Shown in pieces: positions 18,386-24,975 of a stretch of 64,000 nucleotides of DNA. The DNA comes from Bacillota bacterium (GTDB lineage: Bacteria > Bacillota > JAAYKD01), in NCBI GenBank assembly GCA_963666425.2, contig OY762825.2:1184001-1248000 (forward strand), in the 5' to 3' direction. Positions within the stretch are counted from its first letter, which is position 1, and each line of letters opens with the position of its first letter. The position numbers were made by a program, and so were the translations under genes. The notes beneath the pieces were generated by a model. That model saw nothing but the letters and a program-made list of their open reading frames with translations, had not been told where the DNA came from and searched no databases.

Positions 18386-18446
18386 TGAATTATTTAAAAA
18401 CAACGTATCCGGTTCTTATTTCCGGATCATACATTTTGGGGGGCGA

Positions 18447-18472
18447 AGGAATTTCGCTCCCTTTTCTCGAAT
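18447..18472 (+). promoter_or_regulatory. sigma-H-like promoter of the amidohydrolase cluster, overlapping a hairpin
   Basis: AGGA-N18-GAAT. Confidence 0.55.
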
Positions 18473-18583: not shown

Positions 18584-19732
18584 TTGAAAGCGATTGTCAA
18601 CGGAACACTCTATACGATGGTCAACGGCATCATCGAAGACGGTACGATTCTGATCGACGCAGGTAAAATCATTGCCATCGGCAAAAACATTACCCTACCG
18701 GAAGGTACCGAAATCATCTCAGCCAAAGGCTGCGTGGTGCTGCCCGGTTTGATCGATGCCGACTGCAAAGTGGGTATTTTTGAAGAAGGTCAGGGCCCGA
18801 TTGGAAATGACACCAACGAATCGGTTTCTTTGGGAGCCGAATTCCGCGCTTCCGATGCTACCTGGTGGGAAGATGTGGCTTTTGACGACTGCCGCAAAGC
18901 CGGAATTACCGCTTTGTCCATCGGTCCCGGCAGTGCCAATCTGATCAACGGCCAGAGCTTTGTCACCAAAACGGCGCCGGGTGTGATCGATCATCATATT
19001 GTGCGCGCCTTTGCCGGTTTAAAAATCAATATCTGTGGTACTAAAAGCAATCAACATGACCGCACCATGGATATCGCCTCTCTGCAGGCGCAATTGCAAA
19101 AAGCCAAAGAATTGGCTGCCAAGAACCGAAAGCTGATCGAAAAGGGAGAGATTCCGGAAGAGAATCTGAAACTGGATCCTCTGATCGCCTTGCTCGATGG
19201 CAGTAACTTTGCCCGCATCAATGTATTTGCCAACTACGACATCTTAAACGCAATCGAACTGGCCAAGGATTGGGGCTTCCCTCTGGTTTTAGAACGCTGT
19301 TACGAAGGTCATCTTGCGCTGGAAGAAATCGTCGCCGCCGGCTGCAGTGTGATTGCCGGACCCACTTTCATCAACCGGGTGGGCAGTGCGAAGAACCTGT
19401 CGCTTAAGATGCCGGGTGTTCTGGCCAAAGCCGGTGTTAAAGTCGCTCTCTGCAGCGATCATCCCACCTTGCCCAGTGAAAATCTGGCCACGCAGGCGGC
19501 GCTTTGTTGCCGCGACGGCATGCCGGAAGAATTGGCGCTGCAAGCCATCACCTCGGTGGCTGCCGAAGTCTTAGGTGTAGCCGATCGCATCGGCTCTCTG
19601 GCAGTCGGCAAAGATGCCGATCTCGCCATTTTCAGCGGACATCCTTTCAAAACCGCAACACAGTGTCTGGCTACGCTGATCAACGGCGAATTTGTTTACC
19701 AAGCAGAAAAAGGCGGTGCATGTTCATGCTAG
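18584..19732 (+). CDS. Amidohydrolase-family protein 1, metal ligands absent (probable pseudoenzyme)
   Basis: Fold motifs VLPGLID and GSLAVGKDAD present; HxH replaced by DCK, other His ligands absent. Confidence 0.85.
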   Translation: MKAIVNGTLYTMVNGIIEDGTILIDAGKIIAIGKNITLPEGTEIISAKGCVVLPGLIDADCKVGIFEEGQGPIGNDTNESVSLGAEFRASDATWWEDVAFDDCRKAGITALSIGPGSANLINGQSFVTKTAPGVIDHHIVRAFAGLKINICGTKSNQHDRTMDIASLQAQLQKAKELAAKNRKLIEKGEIPEENLKLDPLIALLDGSNFARINVFANYDILNAIELAKDWGFPLVLERCYEGHLALEEIVAAGCSVIAGPTFINRVGSAKNLSLKMPGVLAKAGVKVALCSDHPTLPSENLATQAALCCRDGMPEELALQAITSVAAEVLGVADRIGSLAVGKDADLAIFSGHPFKTATQCLATLINGEFVYQAEKGGACSC

Positions 19733-20922
19733 CAATTACCAATGCGACTCTGGTTACAATTTCCGGTCCGATCATTGAGAAGGGAACCATCATCCTCGAC
19801 AGCGGTAAAATCGTTGCGGTCGGAAAAGACCTGACGATTCCGTCTGATGCCGAAGTCATCGACGCGGAAGGCAAATATGTCATGCCGGGTATTGTGGAAG
19901 CGCACTGCCATATCGGTGTGATGGACTTTGATAACAATGACGATGACAATCAGTATGATGCCGATGGCGCACCCAACGGCGGCGCCGGCTTCGGTCCGGC
20001 TGTCACACCGGAATTAATGAGCTATTATACCTTCAATCCGCGCCATGTCCAAGTGAAGCAGTCTCTGGCATCTGGTGTCACGACCATGCTGACCCGTCCG
20101 GGTTCCGGTAAGATCATCTCCGGCATGGGTATGGTGGTAAAAACCTATGGCAAGAACCGCAAAGAAATGGTTCTGCTCAATCCGGCGGAGGTCAAAATGG
20201 CGTTGGGTGAAAATCCCAAGCGCAACTTTGGCTCCCGCAATCAGTCTCCCTCCACCCGCATGGGCAGCGGCGCTCTGCTGCGTGATGCTTTCATAAAAGC
20301 AAAAGCGTATATGGCCAAACGGGAAAAAGATCCCGAGACTCCGCTCAATTTTCAAATGGAACCTCTGGTCAAATTGCTGAAGGGCGAATTGGTTGCGCAT
20401 GTGCATGCCCATCGTGCCGATGATATCATGATGGCCCTGCGCGCTTCCGACGAATTCGGTTTTAAATTAACCATTGAACATGCTTCCGAAGCGCATCTGC
20501 TGCTGGAGGAATTGAAAAAACGCAACGTCCCCTGCATCCTCGGTCCCACCATGGCTCGCACGAAAGTTGAAACCGCCCGCAAGGATTTTGCTTCCGCCGG
20601 TATTTTGGAACGAGCCGGGATCAAAGTCTGCATTACCACCGATGCCGGTGTGGTACCGCAGGAGTATTTACGCACTTGCGTTTGCCTCAGTCACCGTGCC
20701 GGCATGAGCGAAGCAGGCTCTCTGCGTGCTATGACCTTAACCTCTGCCGAAATCATTGGCGTAGCCGACCGTCTCGGTTCTTTGGATGTCGGTAAAGACG
20801 CAGACGTTCTGGTGCTGAACGGTCATCCTCTGGAATTGATGACTCAGGTCGAACAGGTTTACGTCAATGGCAGACTCGCTTTTGATATTCATCGGGATAA
20901 AGAAGATTGGGAGATGGCTTAA
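19726..20922 (+). CDS. Amidohydrolase-family protein 2, metal ligands intact
   Basis: EAHCH, KMALGENPK, HAHRADD, EH, TTD; start 19726 overlaps the stop of gene 1. Confidence 0.9.
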   Translation: MLAITNATLVTISGPIIEKGTIILDSGKIVAVGKDLTIPSDAEVIDAEGKYVMPGIVEAHCHIGVMDFDNNDDDNQYDADGAPNGGAGFGPAVTPELMSYYTFNPRHVQVKQSLASGVTTMLTRPGSGKIISGMGMVVKTYGKNRKEMVLLNPAEVKMALGENPKRNFGSRNQSPSTRMGSGALLRDAFIKAKAYMAKREKDPETPLNFQMEPLVKLLKGELVAHVHAHRADDIMMALRASDEFGFKLTIEHASEAHLLLEELKKRNVPCILGPTMARTKVETARKDFASAGILERAGIKVCITTDAGVVPQEYLRTCVCLSHRAGMSEAGSLRAMTLTSAEIIGVADRLGSLDVGKDADVLVLNGHPLELMTQVEQVYVNGRLAFDIHRDKEDWEMA

Positions 20923-20931
20923 GGAGGGATC

Positions 20932-22083
20932 ATGATGTTTGCAATCAAGAATGCCCGCCTTTTTACCATGTCGCACGGCAGAGTAGAAAACGGCAGCCTG
21001 TTGGTCAAAGATGGTGTGATTGCGGCAGTTGGCGCAGAAATTGAGATTCCGGCTGATTGTCCCGTCCTTGACGCCGGTGGCAAAGTCCTGACACCCGGTT
21101 TGGTCGAAGCCTGCGGCCGTCCCGGCTTGCACGAAGAAGTTGTTGGTGCCATTGGTGCCGATGAAGATGAAACCCAAGAAAAAATGGGTGCCTATTTACG
21201 CGCTCTGGACGGAATTTTACCCAACGATCCCTCTTTTGACGATGCTTTGCGCGGTGGGGTAACCACGGTTAATATTTGCCCCGGCACCTCTGCCATCGTA
21301 GCCGGTCAGAGTGTCATCGTGCATACCGCCGGCAGTCCGATTATCGACCGCCGCATCCTCAAGCAGCCCTTTGCTTTGTTCGTTAATCTGGTAGGCGGCG
21401 GCAATCCCATGACAGGCTTGCGTGACCGCAGCGAAATGGTGGCAAAACTGATCAGCGAGCTGCAGAAAGCCAAAGAATGGCTGGCCAAACGCGATAAAGC
21501 CCTGGCAGAAGGCAAAACAGCACCGGAGGCAGGCTTTCGCCTGGCGCCGATGGTCGCTGTCCTGGAAGGCAAACTGCCGCTGATCATGCAGGTGGTCTAT
21601 TTGCACGATATTCTCAATGCCCTGGAATTGGCGGAGCAATGGGGTTTCCGCTTGATTTTACAGCGGATCAGCGAAGCCTATTATTGCGTGGAAGATTTGC
21701 TGCAGGCAAAGGTACCGATGATCGTTGGACCAATTCTGATGAATCGCCGCGGTTTGTTCAGCACCACCTCGCACAAAACACCGGGGATCCTGCAGCAAGC
21801 CGGCTTGAAATTTGCCCTTTCCACCGAACACCCGCAAACCGGGATCGATTATCTGGTAACAACCGCCGCCATCGCCAATCGGGAAGGCATGGACGACGAG
21901 GAAGCGCTGAAAGCCATCACCCTCTACCCTGCCCAATTGCTTGGTCTCGACAGTCAGCTCGGTTCTCTGGATGTGGGTAAAAAAGCAGACCTGGTCTTAT
22001 GGACCGACCACCCCTTTGAAACAAAAAGCTACGTGGAACAGGTGTGGATCGATGGTCTGCCGGTTTACGAAAGGAGGCAATGA
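20932..22083 (+). CDS. Amidohydrolase-family protein 3, metal ligands absent (probable pseudoenzyme)
   Basis: LTPGLVEACGR in place of HxH; no carbamylatable Lys; GSLDVGKKAD retained. Confidence 0.85.
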   Translation: MMFAIKNARLFTMSHGRVENGSLLVKDGVIAAVGAEIEIPADCPVLDAGGKVLTPGLVEACGRPGLHEEVVGAIGADEDETQEKMGAYLRALDGILPNDPSFDDALRGGVTTVNICPGTSAIVAGQSVIVHTAGSPIIDRRILKQPFALFVNLVGGGNPMTGLRDRSEMVAKLISELQKAKEWLAKRDKALAEGKTAPEAGFRLAPMVAVLEGKLPLIMQVVYLHDILNALELAEQWGFRLILQRISEAYYCVEDLLQAKVPMIVGPILMNRRGLFSTTSHKTPGILQQAGLKFALSTEHPQTGIDYLVTTAAIANREGMDDEEALKAITLYPAQLLGLDSQLGSLDVGKKADLVLWTDHPFETKSYVEQVWIDGLPVYERRQ

Positions 22084-22084
22084 A

Positions 22085-23290
22085 TTGGCTAAATATGCAA
22101 TCACAGCCGCGCGGATCTATACGGTTGATACCGCCGGTGTGCTGGATCACGGCATCCTCTTAGTGGATGGCAGCAAGATCATTGCCGTAGCGGATCACCT
22201 CAGCATTCCTTCCGACTACGAACTGGTTGATTTCGGTGGGCAGCAGATTATGCCCGGTATGGTAGAAGCACACAGCCATTTAGTGACGCACGACTGGAAT
22301 CAAAACGAATATGCAGAAAGCGATCTGAACGGCGCCTCGCTTGGCATCGCCTGTTCGCCGGATGTCGATTATTTTTATCACTTTGATCCGCGTCACCGTC
22401 ACCTCAACGATGCGCTGGCAGGCGGCGTTACCACCGCCAATATTCTGCCCGGCAGCGGCAAGATCATCACAGGTGTCGGTTTTGCCGCCAAAATGGCCGG
22501 CAAAACCAGAGAAGATTTGTTGCTCAAACGCAATACCGGCGTAAAAATCGCTTTGGGAGAAAACCCGAAACGGGCTGTCGGTTCTAAGGGCGTGATTCCT
22601 ACTACCCGGATGGGTTCTGCCGCTGTGCTGCGCGAAACCTTGCGCAAAGCGCAGGAATACATGGCAAAAAAGGAAACTGCGCTGGCAGATGGCAAAGAAT
22701 TCGCCCTCAATACACAATTGGAACCGCTGATTCCTTTACTGAAACGGGAGGTGCCCGGCAAAATTCACGCGCACCGAGCAGATGACATGATGACCGCCAT
22801 GCGGATTGCCGATGAATTTCAGCTGATCATCACCCTGGAACACACCACCAGCGGCCATTTGCTGACGGATGAGATCAAAAAGCGCCAGATCATGTGTACG
22901 CTGGGACCAACTTTTGGTTCCCGCGGCAAACAGGAAGTGCATGCCAAAGAGTATCGTACCGCCGCTGTACTGGAAGAAGCCGGTATTCTCTTTTCTTTCA
23001 CCACCGATGCTTCCGTAATGGCAATTGAACTGCTGCGTTTGAGCGGTTCTTTGGCTTGGAAAGAAGGCTGTTCGGAAGAAACAACCCTGAAAGCGCTGAC
23101 CTTGCATGGCGCAAAAATCACCGGCGTCGCCGACCGGGTTGGTTCGCTGGCGGTTGGTAAGGATGCCGATTTTGCAGTTTACAACGGCCATCCCCTTTCC
23201 ATTCGCAGCAGCTGTATCGAGACCTGGGTCAACGGCGAAAAAGTCTGGGATAAAGCCACCTGGCTGGAACCTTGGCAGCGTGGATACTAA
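22085..23290 (+). CDS. Amidohydrolase-family protein 4, metal ligands intact
   Basis: EAHSH, KIALGENPK, HAHRADD, EH, TTD; TTG start behind AAGGAGG. Confidence 0.9.
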   Translation: MAKYAITAARIYTVDTAGVLDHGILLVDGSKIIAVADHLSIPSDYELVDFGGQQIMPGMVEAHSHLVTHDWNQNEYAESDLNGASLGIACSPDVDYFYHFDPRHRHLNDALAGGVTTANILPGSGKIITGVGFAAKMAGKTREDLLLKRNTGVKIALGENPKRAVGSKGVIPTTRMGSAAVLRETLRKAQEYMAKKETALADGKEFALNTQLEPLIPLLKREVPGKIHAHRADDMMTAMRIADEFQLIITLEHTTSGHLLTDEIKKRQIMCTLGPTFGSRGKQEVHAKEYRTAAVLEEAGILFSFTTDASVMAIELLRLSGSLAWKEGCSEETTLKALTLHGAKITGVADRVGSLAVGKDADFAVYNGHPLSIRSSCIETWVNGEKVWDKATWLEPWQRGY

Positions 23291-23344
23291 TTGAAATAGC
23301 CGCTCACCAATGAACCGCTTTTTGTCAAGTAAGCAATCAAAAAT

Positions 23345-23389
23345 AAAAAAACGGACGGATTATCAAAAGTTAATCCGTTCGTTTTTTTT
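23345..23389. terminator. Terminator after the amidohydrolase operon
   Basis: aaaaaaacggacggatta..taatccgttcgtttttttt. Confidence 0.75.
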
Positions 23390-23661
23390 AACGACCTTGT
23401 TTGTAAAATACACCATTGTTATAATTCTTCTAAAAGCCATAAGTCAAGCAAATAGAGAACGAATACAATTTACATTAACGGGGCGTGGCAATAAAATTTA
23501 CAGACAGATAACCCCGGCTGGCTTCGCTTTGAAAATACACCCGCTAATTTATAATCTATGGTATGAAGTTATCTACGATGATTTGTTCTCTGCAAGATTT
23601 TTACAAAACCAATATCATTAACATAAATCTCACGAATTAACGAAACACTGGATTACTATCA

Positions 23662-24543
23662 TTAGCTCCAGTTGTTCGATTTTCCCATATCCGGATATTG
23701 CTGAAGCAATTTATTATTGGCAATTTCAAGTTGTTTATAGTACTCAGCGTAGGAGGTACTCAGCCTTTTCATTGCAGGAATGAAGATATCATAATAGCCG
23801 CTCGTGCTATTGAACTCTTTTAGTAAAGACTGAATTCTAAAAATAGGTGAATTTCTGAATTCATCAGATAGTTTGAATGCTAAATACTGATCTAGCATTT
23901 CCTTGTTCTGAGATAAAAATTCTTCTGGATTTTCAATAGAATGCTTTGCACTTTCTATCATTTGAGTAATATTCTCAGTGCTTATATGCTTTGTGTTTTC
24001 AATAAAATATTCCTGCAGATCCTGTGGGAAGTTAAGTGGTGGTACCTCATCCAAAAATGTCACTACTTCTTGATAAGCAGCTCTCTGCTTATCTGTCACA
24101 ATCAGTTCATTCAAAAAACGAGCAAAATGCAGACAAATAAACCTACCATAATATCCCGGGAACGCATTCAATAGCTTTTCCGTAACTGATGCACCTTGTT
24201 CGATTACCATTAATTCCTCTTCTATTTCAGAATAACTCTTGCCACAACTCAGCTCATCAAGTATAGCTTTCTTTGCCTGTTCCCTCTGAACATTCAATTC
24301 ACTTTGAACCGATAACTTTTGTAACATGTCTCCGGTGTCATCATCAAGTACTTTTTTGATTTCTTCTACACTTATTCCCAATTTACGAAGAACAGAGATT
24401 TTCTTTAATCGCTCTACATCCTTTTCGTTGAAATCTCTATACCCATTCTCTAGAATGGCAGGAGAAATCAATTCTTGTTCTGTGTAATACTCAATTGCTT
24501 TTTTTGTTAAATCTGTTACTTTACTTGCGGCCTTTATTAGCAT
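23662..24543 (-). CDS. MerR-family transcriptional regulator with a long C-terminal domain, AT-rich
   Basis: LTKKAIEYYTEQELISP..ENGYRDF..LRKLGISVEEIK MerR HTH. Confidence 0.9.
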   Translation of the reverse strand: MLIKAASKVTDLTKKAIEYYTEQELISPAILENGYRDFNEKDVERLKKISVLRKLGISVEEIKKVLDDDTGDMLQKLSVQSELNVQREQAKKAILDELSCGKSYSEIEEELMVIEQGASVTEKLLNAFPGYYGRFICLHFARFLNELIVTDKQRAAYQEVVTFLDEVPPLNFPQDLQEYFIENTKHISTENITQMIESAKHSIENPEEFLSQNKEMLDQYLAFKLSDEFRNSPIFRIQSLLKEFNSTSGYYDIFIPAMKRLSTSYAEYYKQLEIANNKLLQQYPDMGKSNNWS

Positions 24544-24562
24544 ATTATTTCACCTCAATATA

Positions 24563-24593
24563 ATTATAGGCTAGCACCGAAGGTGCTAGTCAA
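24563..24593 (-). promoter_or_regulatory. MerR-type promoter/operator, autoregulatory
   Basis: TTGACT-N19-TATAAT with a perfect dyad CTAGCACC-N3-GGTGCTAG (24571-24589) over the spacer. Confidence 0.85.
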
Positions 24594-24975
24594 TAGGCAA
24601 AATAGAAATTTTCCATTTCACATTCAGTTAAATTTGCAACGTATTATTAAGAATCTGAAAATGTCACCTGACACATAGAACTTTTTGGTATTATCTTTGA
24701 AAATTCATATGTCATCTATAAAACGTCCCAAAAACGGAGATCAAAAAATGTTCTTTTTGGCCTTGCTGATGGATATCATAATAATCCAGCGGAAGATATT
24801 TACCCGTTTGGACAAGTTGTGCATCTGATACTGAGAGTGTTTTTTAATTCCCAGATGGGTCCAGACGCTGCGCTGTGCCAACACCCCCGTCCCCCTGGAA
24901 CGGTCCTGAAAGAAAATGCAAAGCGATTGCGAAACAGTGAATAGTAATCATTAGGATGACAATAAATTTTTTTAA

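Follow-up and report, generated by a model that had tools for sequence, protein, structure and literature searches.

The four amidohydrolase genes at positions 18584-23290 of the window, the 64,000-nt stretch of DNA whose positions serve as coordinates here, probably encode two ancient enzyme/pseudoenzyme pairs on the 3OOQ-like branch of the amidohydrolase superfamily, each a hetero-oligomer in which one subunit type is a pseudoenzyme. The four open reading frames are close-packed on the + strand in the order dead-active-dead-active: gene 1 (18584..19732, 382 aa, TTG start, read from the ORF and its ribosome-binding site), gene 2 (19726..20922, 398 aa, ATG start), gene 3 (20932..22083, 383 aa) and gene 4 (22085..23290, 401 aa), whose start we placed at the TTG at 22085 in preference to the longer ORF start. 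An AGGAGG-type ribosome-binding site lies ahead of all four genes. The ATG of gene 2 is located inside the end of gene 1, giving an overlap of 7 nt, and the gaps between genes 2 and 3 and between genes 3 and 4 are 9 nt and 1 nt. The genes would form a single transcription unit. Its 5' limit is a G+C-rich hairpin followed by a T run (18438..18467, + strand), which probably terminates transcription of the metallophosphoesterase gene further upstream; this is a reading of the sequence, as the hairpin is absent from the list of the consensus terminator scan, and it is kept 5' of gene 1 in genomes G001, G002, G004 and G005 and in contigs L146 and L147. A second hairpin with a T run (23351..23389, + strand) is likely the terminator of the four-gene unit, and the minus strand also reads as a terminator, listed by the scan at 23378-23355. 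Rfam models at their gathering thresholds had 0 matches anywhere in the window, so a ligand is not suggested by any known riboswitch.

All four proteins matched the Pfam models Amidohydro_1 and Amidohydro_3 with 46.8-70.3 bits, above the cut-offs of 25 and 29.7. In binuclear amidohydrolases the metal ligands are the HxH after strand 1, the Lys after strand 4, the His after strands 5 and 6 and the Asp after strand 8. The initial annotation had described an alternation of pseudoenzymes and active enzymes, and the alignments confirmed it: genes 2 and 4 retain HxH, the Lys of K-x-A-L-G-E-N-P-K, HAHRADD, EH and TTD, which is every metal ligand, and the catalytically competent binuclear set is incomplete in genes 1 and 3. 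The ligand columns hold D-x-K, N/F and ER in gene 1 (D, K, K, N/F, R, D as a set) and C-x-R, Phe replacing Lys, Q/V, QR and Glu replacing the last Asp in gene 3 (C, R, F, Q/V, R, E). Conversely, EEG-x-G, D-x-(N/D)-E, RA-x-D, GQ and (D/E)HP are present in genes 1 and 3 and absent from genes 2 and 4. None of the four chains therefore combines the ligand set with the first-loop motifs as canonical 3OOQ-like members do. Single-gene homologues had been described as carrying both sets on one chain, and this holds for PDB 3OOQ, for five intact other paralogues in this genome and, among the top 120 database matches to gene 1, for 103; a sixth, split paralogue has both sets across its two pieces. Several paralogues appeared to contain in-frame TAG/TAA stops, and at the locus checked (G000:C1:2686941-2688113) the match overruns the gene's own stop. 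The motif pattern recurs unchanged in six related genomes and six metagenome contigs, and the motif states are conserved in every orthologue seen.

We refer to the wider group of dead chains as the D-class and to that of active chains as the A-class. In the trees, each class forms one clade inside the canonical family (support 96-99 for D and 100 for A), with genes 1 and 3 in one and genes 2 and 4 in the other as expected, and a second tree agrees. Members of the D clade come from several lineages. The branching of one class mirrors that of the other: the gene 1 lineage corresponds to the gene 2 lineage, and gene 3 with its sister, the database protein P0020, corresponds to gene 4 with P0144, gene 4 grouping also with P0139 and P0140. 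The sisters P0013/P0014 correspond to the sisters P0129/P0135, and P0011/P0012 mirror P0130/P0131. Mirror partners were linked by the equal sizes of their longest contigs (5538, 27944, 21540, 24100, 12490, 14181, 40961 and 60603). The idea that one pair had been duplicated held in that there are two pairs, but the duplication is ancient and not a recent local event, since genes 3 and 4 group with the pair of another organism. Single D-A pairs also exist, in genome G007 and on contig L146, where genes 3 and 4 are deleted.

The pairing is conserved across genomes, as had been anticipated. Of the 401 genomes sampled from the phylum, 7 had D-class matches of at least 496 bits, and A-class matches of at least 570 bits occurred in the same seven, the next best A-class match scoring 503 bits; these co-occurrence counts come from related genomes that amount to effectively two lineages. 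Another 29 genomes had weaker D-class matches, and the 24 of these that were classified were all canonical. D and A are adjacent in that order in all seven genomes, with tight spacing in those read. Quartets or pairs are present in 7 of 10 genomes of the bacterial class and on six metagenome contigs, and the D-A-D-A order is also found on contigs L147, L148, L150 and L151. For Chloroflexota and other Bacillota bins, equal longest-contig sizes suggest that D and A are adjacent; none of the 401 Chloroflexota genomes sampled gave a match at E <= 1e-135, so for this phylum the adjacency is read from contig sizes. A profile search of genome contigs with the D-class alignment returned 80 loci, nearly all canonical and none D-class or A-class; it used a motif common to the whole family and serves as a family sample only.

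Association of a dead with an active chain was predicted for the one pairing that was folded, gene 2 with gene 1. The three heterodimer models gave ipSAE values of 0.80, 0.80 and 0.79, compared with 0.00 for the best of three controls; at least 90% of the contacts agree between runs, and the partner pLDDT is 92. These values pass the ipSAE mark, which 116 of 157 solved complexes and 2 of 215 mismatched pairs attained, a calibration that holds only roughly here because self-made alignments were used. As the family includes 3OOQ, the result may reflect likeness to a solved homo-oligomer, and the score does not separate A-D from A-A or D-D. By this prediction, the products of genes 1 and 2 probably bind each other, as the initial annotation had proposed for the dead and active chains.

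The loops that follow strands 1, 7 and 8, together with a C-terminal loop, make up the modelled interface, which therefore adjoins the active-site face. On the A side, an invariant C-terminal Glu-x-Trp (100% in A), where D and canonical members mostly have a gap, contacts D in the model. The interface also includes an Asn found only in D (89%) and a Lys that is invariant (100%) in A and canonical members and lost in D. The residues of D-x-N-E and RA-x-D are not among the confident contacts of the heterodimer model.

We propose that the A-class proteins of genes 2 and 4, with their complete binuclear-metal catalytic core, would carry out the chemistry, and that the D-class proteins of genes 1 and 3, which lack a metal site, would be conserved non-catalytic subunits. 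Each D would bind its downstream A partner across the two-fold interface of the family. An ancestral homo-oligomer would thus have become an A/D hetero-oligomer, presumably with one live site per A-D dimer. Given that the complex exists, the detailed model we favour, although we rate it as somewhat less likely than not, is that the first-loop residues retained by D (EEG, D-x-N-E, RA-x-D) and its D-H-P loop act in trans, at or beside the active site of A and its conserved Arg/Lys/Glu loop, and that the mirror-image half of the interface has degenerated in both chains. Since D-x-N-E and RA-x-D fall outside the list of confident contacts, the trans model rests on neighbouring positions. The A-class may also work alone, as it keeps the whole catalytic core.

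A more far-reaching version of this proposal joins five claims: the sites of an ancestral homo-decamer were completed across the two-fold interface; one site of each pair died, and its loss removed the metal core from one chain and the trans-acting first loop from the other; five live sites remain in the resulting A5D5 particle; the operon pairs and the fused proteins of Planctomycetota and Acidobacteriota are independent versions of a widespread, unrecognised obligate enzyme/pseudoenzyme principle; and the two pairs might mix, giving extra specificities. Taken jointly, we consider these rather unlikely. Motif loss had been described as complementary, and each motif set does lie on a different chain, but complementarity at the level of single columns does not exceed what independent loss predicts. 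Among the 136 columns that canonical members conserve, D alone has lost 31, A alone 16 and both classes 5, compared with about 5.6 expected for both (Fisher odds ratio 0.85, p = 1.0). The notable feature is the placement of the losses and not their exclusivity: 36 of the 136 columns are lost in D, and the first-loop D, E, R, D, D columns are kept there at 93-100%.

Dead and active domains are also found joined in single chains. Among the 150 best representatives, 148 proteins were newly returned and 115 of these have two or three domains, including 43 with a dead-active-dead and 21 with an active-dead architecture. Continuous open frames of this fusion type, 1435 and 1016 aa long, are present in genomes, and fused dead-active-dead proteins were found in Planctomycetota and Acidobacteriota. 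The fused proteins lie in other clades, and the first-loop motifs are still present in their active domains; they support an association of dead and active domains, not complementarity.

The retained motifs of the D-class are located in catalytic-face loops of its own barrel (after strands 1, 2 and 8), which makes a metal-free pocket in cis plausible. The D-class could then consist of free-standing ligand-binding, sensor or chaperone-like proteins that are co-expressed with the A enzymes of a shared pathway and form no stable complex with them; the apparent independence of the column losses and the position of D-x-N-E and RA-x-D outside the confident contacts fit this explanation. However, D and A co-occur strictly, their genes are adjacent and overlapping or 1 nt apart, dead and active domains are fused in related subfamilies, and the modelled interface carries class-specific invariants on both sides, including the A-only Glu-x-Trp that contacts D. 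We regard a free-standing role as distinctly unlikely.

Metal-free members of the amidohydrolase superfamily exist, and the D-class could still be enzymes with metal-independent or different chemistry that catalyse a neighbouring step of the same pathway. Strong purifying selection and invariant polar residues of its own (the Arg of R-D-R, an Asn, a Gln and the first-loop Asp/Glu/Arg/Asp) agree with such a function. Nevertheless, the D-class has lost the HAHRADD, G-E-N-P-K-R and T-R-M segments as well as the conserved Lys/Glu loop, and no family model of a different enzyme scored above its own cut-off for the D-class. The former ligand positions hold varied residues across the class, which also makes a conserved alternative metal site, a possibility that had been set against the heteromer, unlikely for genes 1 and 3. 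A separate enzymatic function of the D-class is, in our view, very improbable.

Purifying selection acts on the dead genes as strongly as on the active ones. Between G000 and G001, dN/dS was 0.071 for gene 1, 0.057 for gene 2, 0.095 for gene 3 and 0.073 for gene 4, so the relaxed selection on genes 1 and 3 that would have spoken against a retained role was not seen. Most catalytic residues of genes 1 and 3 are lost, as in decaying duplicates without a function of their own, but the selection and conservation data already contradict decay, to which we give practically no credence: every genome seen has intact frames, the dN/dS values resemble those of the active genes, and the D clade occurs in several lineages with its own invariant residues.

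The closest solved relative is PDB 3OOQ, presumably from Thermotoga maritima (E 2.8e-78 to gene 2 and 1.9e-48 to gene 1). It has the same length and fold family as the products of genes 1-4, but it is a homo-oligomer with the ligands and first-loop motifs on one chain, whereas here the two sets are on separate chains. The structure search and the accessible part of a preprint (10.64898/2026.08.06.736029) describe ten chains with dihedral symmetry. No function for 3OOQ was found in the literature searched, where it is mentioned in docking work. The best named families and structures after 3OOQ are the cog1228 peptidases (Xaa-Pro dipeptidase, the Arg/Lys carboxypeptidase Cc2672 and imidazolonepropionase), which share binuclear-metal amide hydrolase chemistry; scores against these families are far under the cut-offs, and the matches cover the termini only. 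The NCBIfam models for Xaa-Pro dipeptidase (NF051886; best score 80.2, curated cut-off 500) and imidazolonepropionase (TIGR01224, HutI; best 54.5, cut-off 298) were not reached. A metal-dependent bile salt hydrolase (2026 preprints PMC13081902 and PMC13081988) was considered as a relative and set aside; according to the available portion of PMC13081902, its protein belongs to a different subfamily and is longer (945 aa, 3ICJ-like).

The nearest analogue of the proposed mode of working is the prozyme system. In trypanosomatids, according to the accessible portions of PMC3663545 and PMC5201418, deoxyhypusine synthase and S-adenosylmethionine decarboxylase each have a dead paralogue that is conserved and needed and that hetero-oligomerises with the impaired or active enzyme, with a measured activation of 3000-fold (PMC3663545). 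Genes 1 and 3 likewise are paralogues without catalytic residues, yet under purifying selection. Prozymes are eukaryotic, have another fold and an activation that was measured, whereas the present genes are operonic, form two pairs and have a predicted association. The best-documented enzyme/pseudoenzyme heteromers are eukaryotic, these trypanosome prozymes among them, and to our knowledge bacterial operon-encoded ones with comparable comparative support are rare. In the aspartate transcarbamoylase of Pseudomonas aeruginosa, as far as the available text of PMC7053772 goes, a pseudo-dihydroorotase is a required structural subunit. A dead member of the amidohydrolase superfamily thus serves in a complex there as proposed here, but its partner is an unrelated enzyme, while here the partner is an active paralogue. 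We found no description of dead/active amidohydrolase pairs in the literature searched, which covered few subscription journals; the arrangement is apparently undescribed for this enzyme family in those papers, and enzyme/pseudoenzyme heteromers themselves are already known.

The substrate is most likely an amide or peptide-like compound. In the neighbourhoods of canonical members, scanned for 95 of 192 candidate neighbour proteins, we found TsaE at 11 loci, peptidase M23 at 11, D-Ala-D-Ala ligase at 4, ECF S-components at 3, M55 and M14 at 2 each, and M24, M28 and OPT at 1 each. These neighbourhoods lean weakly to peptide metabolism without pointing to a substrate.

The evolutionary route of this system can be followed stepwise in natural sequences, from a single gene through tandem pairs with both members active, dead/active pairs and duplicated pairs to fused dead-active-dead chains. 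For enzymologists, the arrangement is an argument for co-expressing neighbouring paralogues if proteins of this uncharacterised family fail alone in expression or activity. Database annotation is also affected, in that all these proteins are labelled plain 'amidohydrolase' and dead and active members share that one label; judged from their sequences, 17 of the 120 closest database relatives of gene 1, about a seventh, would be unable to bind metal.

Four ORFs, all on the plus strand, occupy 18584–23290. From reading of the ORFs and their junctions, these are gene 1 (18584–19732, TTG start, 382 aa), gene 2 (19726–20922, ATG start, 398 aa), gene 3 (20932–22083, ATG start, 383 aa), and gene 4 (22085–23290, TTG start, 401 aa), and each is preceded by an AGGAGG-like site. 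Gene 2 starts within the final codons of gene 1, and gene 4 starts 1 base past the gene 3 stop. Hairpins followed by T runs lie on either side, at 18438–18467 upstream of gene 1 (kept in relatives, and read by us as the terminator for the metallophosphoesterase gene before it) and at 23351–23389 downstream of gene 4, so the four genes look like a single unit. The surrounding order is EF-G paralogue, TusA/DsrE protein, metallophosphoesterase, the quartet, MerR regulator, class I/II aminotransferase, and PHP protein; this synteny is kept across the genome family and so says little about function. The MerR-family gene (23662–24543, minus strand) lies in a lower-G+C stretch (23300–24600) between gene 4 and the aminotransferase gene and has no counterpart at that place in the class genomes G001, G002, G004, and G005; it therefore probably represents a local insertion.

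Each of the four proteins has matches to Pfam Amidohydro_1 and Amidohydro_3, and none reaches the cut-off of a named NCBIfam family. For both types, 3OOQ is the closest solved structure (gene 2, E = 2.8e-78; gene 1, 1.9e-48). Genes 2 and 4 retain the HxH, the Lys, both later His residues, and the Asp, nearly all of which are replaced in genes 1 and 3. Conversely, genes 1 and 3 retain EEG-x-G, D-x-(N/D)-E, RA-x-D, GQ, and (D/E)HP, which are absent from genes 2 and 4. The motif description in the initial annotation was thus right in every motif checked, and its statement that one chain normally carries both sets holds for 3OOQ and for the other paralogues in the genome. There, both sets are carried by five intact paralogues and, across its two pieces, by a sixth that is split, and two tandem pairs are found among them. 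The split paralogue (G000:C1:921964-923102, in the window's own genome outside the window) consists of two overlapping open frames, a probable frameshift or broken gene, and partners the gene at 920773–921918 in a tandem pair.

The two motif states define two groups, for which we coined the names D-class (dead; genes 1 and 3) and A-class (active; genes 2 and 4, with ligands kept, an acidic or glycine-rich stretch in place of the first loop, and T-T-D-A). Among the 120 best database matches to gene 1, the ligands are missing from 17 and complete in 103; the gene 2/4 pattern occurs in 34 of the 54 best gene 2 matches shown (54 of 120 listed), and the other 20 are canonical, with both motif sets. 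A maximum-likelihood tree of 73 proteins placed the D-class in one clade (support 96–99) and the A-class in another (100), which is the predicted grouping of 1 with 3 and 2 with 4, and a second tree with other rows gave the same clades. The split between the two pairs is old: gene 3 is sister to the database protein P0020, gene 4 falls with P0139, P0140, and P0144, and these four proteins come from another source. The longest contigs of P0020 and P0144 are equal in length (14181), as are those of seven further D/A couples, with mirrored tree positions wherever both partners are in the tree. From the equal lengths, rather than by sighting, we infer that the couples are co-located.

As anticipated, the pairing is conserved across genomes. 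The window genome's class comprises 10 genomes in the collection, and the D-A-D-A quartet is present in six (G000 to G005); in G003 the contig ends ahead of gene 4, which was found on another contig. G007 (97% complete) has one D-A pair on a 3.3-kb contig, with no second pair found elsewhere in it, and no D-A genes were seen in G006, G008, and G009 (79–85% complete). Within the phylum sample of 401 genomes, D-class matches of at least 496 bits were restricted to these seven genomes, as were all 13 A-class matches of at least 570 bits (next match, 503 bits). A further 29 genomes match the D-class profile at 430–469 bits, and all 24 that were classified are canonical. Since the seven genomes are kin, they count as about two independent lineages. 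A search of 401 Chloroflexota genomes found nothing, although proteins of both classes that bear the names of Chloroflexota bins are present in the protein collection. Metagenome contigs added four D-A-D-A arrays (L147, L148, L150, and L151, the last with its first gene cut off by the contig end) and two partial ones. In the metagenome contig L146 (92% identity to the window in gene 1), a single deletion (L146:2469-2700, approximately window 20986–23218) has left the initial ~54 nt of gene 3 fused to the final ~70 nt of gene 4. The joint lies at a 3-nt repeat, the second dead/active pair has been lost as a unit, and the first now adjoins the aminotransferase gene.

Decay of the D-class genes would leave relaxed selection, with dN/dS near 1; in the unsaturated comparison of G000 with G001, dN/dS was 0.071, 0.057, 0.095, and 0.073 for genes 1 to 4, showing equal constraint on dead and live genes. 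Metal binding through alternative ligands in genes 1 and 3 is argued against by the former ligand positions, which hold different residues in different D-class lineages and thus do not suggest a conserved substitute site.

The proposal of complementary motif loss held as a regional pattern but not column by column. Of 136 columns with conservation in at least 85% of the 187 canonical sequences, the D-class has lost 36 and the A-class 21, with no excess of exclusive loss (5 columns lost in both vs about 5.6 expected; Fisher p = 1.0). Losses in the D-class fall on the catalytic core (HxH, G-E-N-P-K-R, T-R-M, HAHRADD, the His following strand 6, and the Lys/Glu loop). Sixteen columns are lost in the A-class only, and 10 of these are kept by the D-class in at least 70% of members, all within residues 57–97 save one Gly at position 7; six of the 10 (five acidic or basic residues and a Gly) are held by the D-class at 93–100%. 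Having lost a quarter of the columns that the family conserves while holding on to these residues, the D-class must use them. They could form a pocket in cis; action in trans on the A subunit is the favoured reading, because the flanks of the first loop lie in the predicted interface.

This interface comes from a complex prediction in which gene 2 was folded with gene 1, using the class alignment for each. The ipSAE scores were 0.80, 0.80, and 0.79, against 0.00 for the best of three controls, and exceed a mark that 116 of the 157 solved complexes, but 2 of the 215 mismatched pairs, attained, counts that are only rough here because our own alignments were used. Contacts agreed by at least 90% between runs, with a partner pLDDT of 92. 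This one pairing passes the multimer check, but the score cannot tell A-D from A-A, and since the family has a solved homo-oligomer, the pass may reflect likeness to it. The predicted interface is pseudo-symmetric, comprising the beginning of the first loop, the loops that follow strands 7 and 8, and a C-terminal H-P-(F/L) loop, and several class-specific invariants fall within it in the model. A Glu-x-Trp tail, present in 100% of the A-class and mostly a gap in the D-class and canonical proteins, is predicted to contact a Ser/Lys segment of D; a D-class Asn (89%) would touch the A helix following the first loop; and the Lys of the Arg-x-Lys-x-Glu loop, which is present in 100% of A and canonical proteins but lost from D, also lies in the modelled interface.

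The genes probably encode a hetero-oligomer with a pseudoenzyme subunit. The earlier interpretation of alternating dead and active paralogues as hetero-oligomers was supported in part, by the clades, the constraint, and the gene 2–gene 1 model; the column losses show no excess complementarity, and the split of the pairs is old. The quartet would work like the trypanosome prozyme systems (PMC3663545 and PMC5201418) and resembles, within the same superfamily, the pseudo-dihydroorotase subunit of Pseudomonas ATCase (PMC7053772). Unlike in those systems, the partner of the dead subunit here is its own active paralogue, the genes lie in an operon, and the pair occurs twice. No description of dead/active pairs in the amidohydrolase superfamily was found in the literature searched, the coverage of which is incomplete.

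Searching the D-class profile against 1.84 billion representatives returned many long proteins. Of the 148 new proteins in the top 150, 115 contain two or three domains of the family; by a crude ligand score, the order was dead-active-dead in 43 and active-dead in 21, the rest being mixed or partly degenerate. The named fused members are "amidohydrolase family protein" of Planctomycetota and Acidobacteriota, and the chains are continuous (open frames of 1435 and 1016 aa). The fused proteins (P0240-P0387, G404:C161:9499-11898, and G403:C20:13409-14575) span 800–1500 aa and are for the most part dead-active-dead or active-dead, and their first domain mostly starts near residue 30, which suggests a putative signal peptide in most. 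Their dead domains form a separate clade (98), joined weakly to the D-class (89), and no D-class or A-class domains were found in the fused proteins classified and placed in the tree. Separate genes occur in other lineages too: in a random family sample of 80 loci, nine had more than one family gene, with a degenerate member in eight of the nine, and tandem pairs of two intact copies are common as well. Given the fused dead/active chains and the separate dead-partner and intact tandem genes, the family seems prone to hetero-association of paralogues, and the dead-partner state has arisen more than once.

Tandem pairs of two distinct canonical paralogues with full ligand sets occur in several families of the phylum (L008, L045, L049, L056, L057, L062-L065, and C1:192908-195201 in the window's own genome) and may be heteromers with two live subunits. 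A separate paired-gene lineage (L042:1-2568 on G008:C255, L124:4829-7143, and L131:5983-8282), from the window genome's own order and Tissierellia bins, has one copy without ligands and another partly altered, with the H-x-H after strand 5 replaced. An Armatimonadia bin (L078:3504-13131; G402:C37:28462-39975) has a row of eight tandem family genes with mostly degenerate ligand sets.

The best named relatives are cog1228 peptidases and imidazolonepropionase, all far under cut-offs, and the neighbours of canonical members (95 of 192 candidates scanned) lean weakly to peptide metabolism. We speculate from the acidic first loop of the A-class that its substrates are basic. Single-gene canonical members are often directly upstream of tsaE and tsaB (11 loci), and in Lachnospiraceae bins canonical members are flanked by a peptidase M23 gene (11 loci) on one side and D-Ala-D-Ala ligase (4 loci) on the other; loci with these neighbours include L067, L069, L071, L074, L077, L080, L081, L089, L093, L103, and L115, among others.
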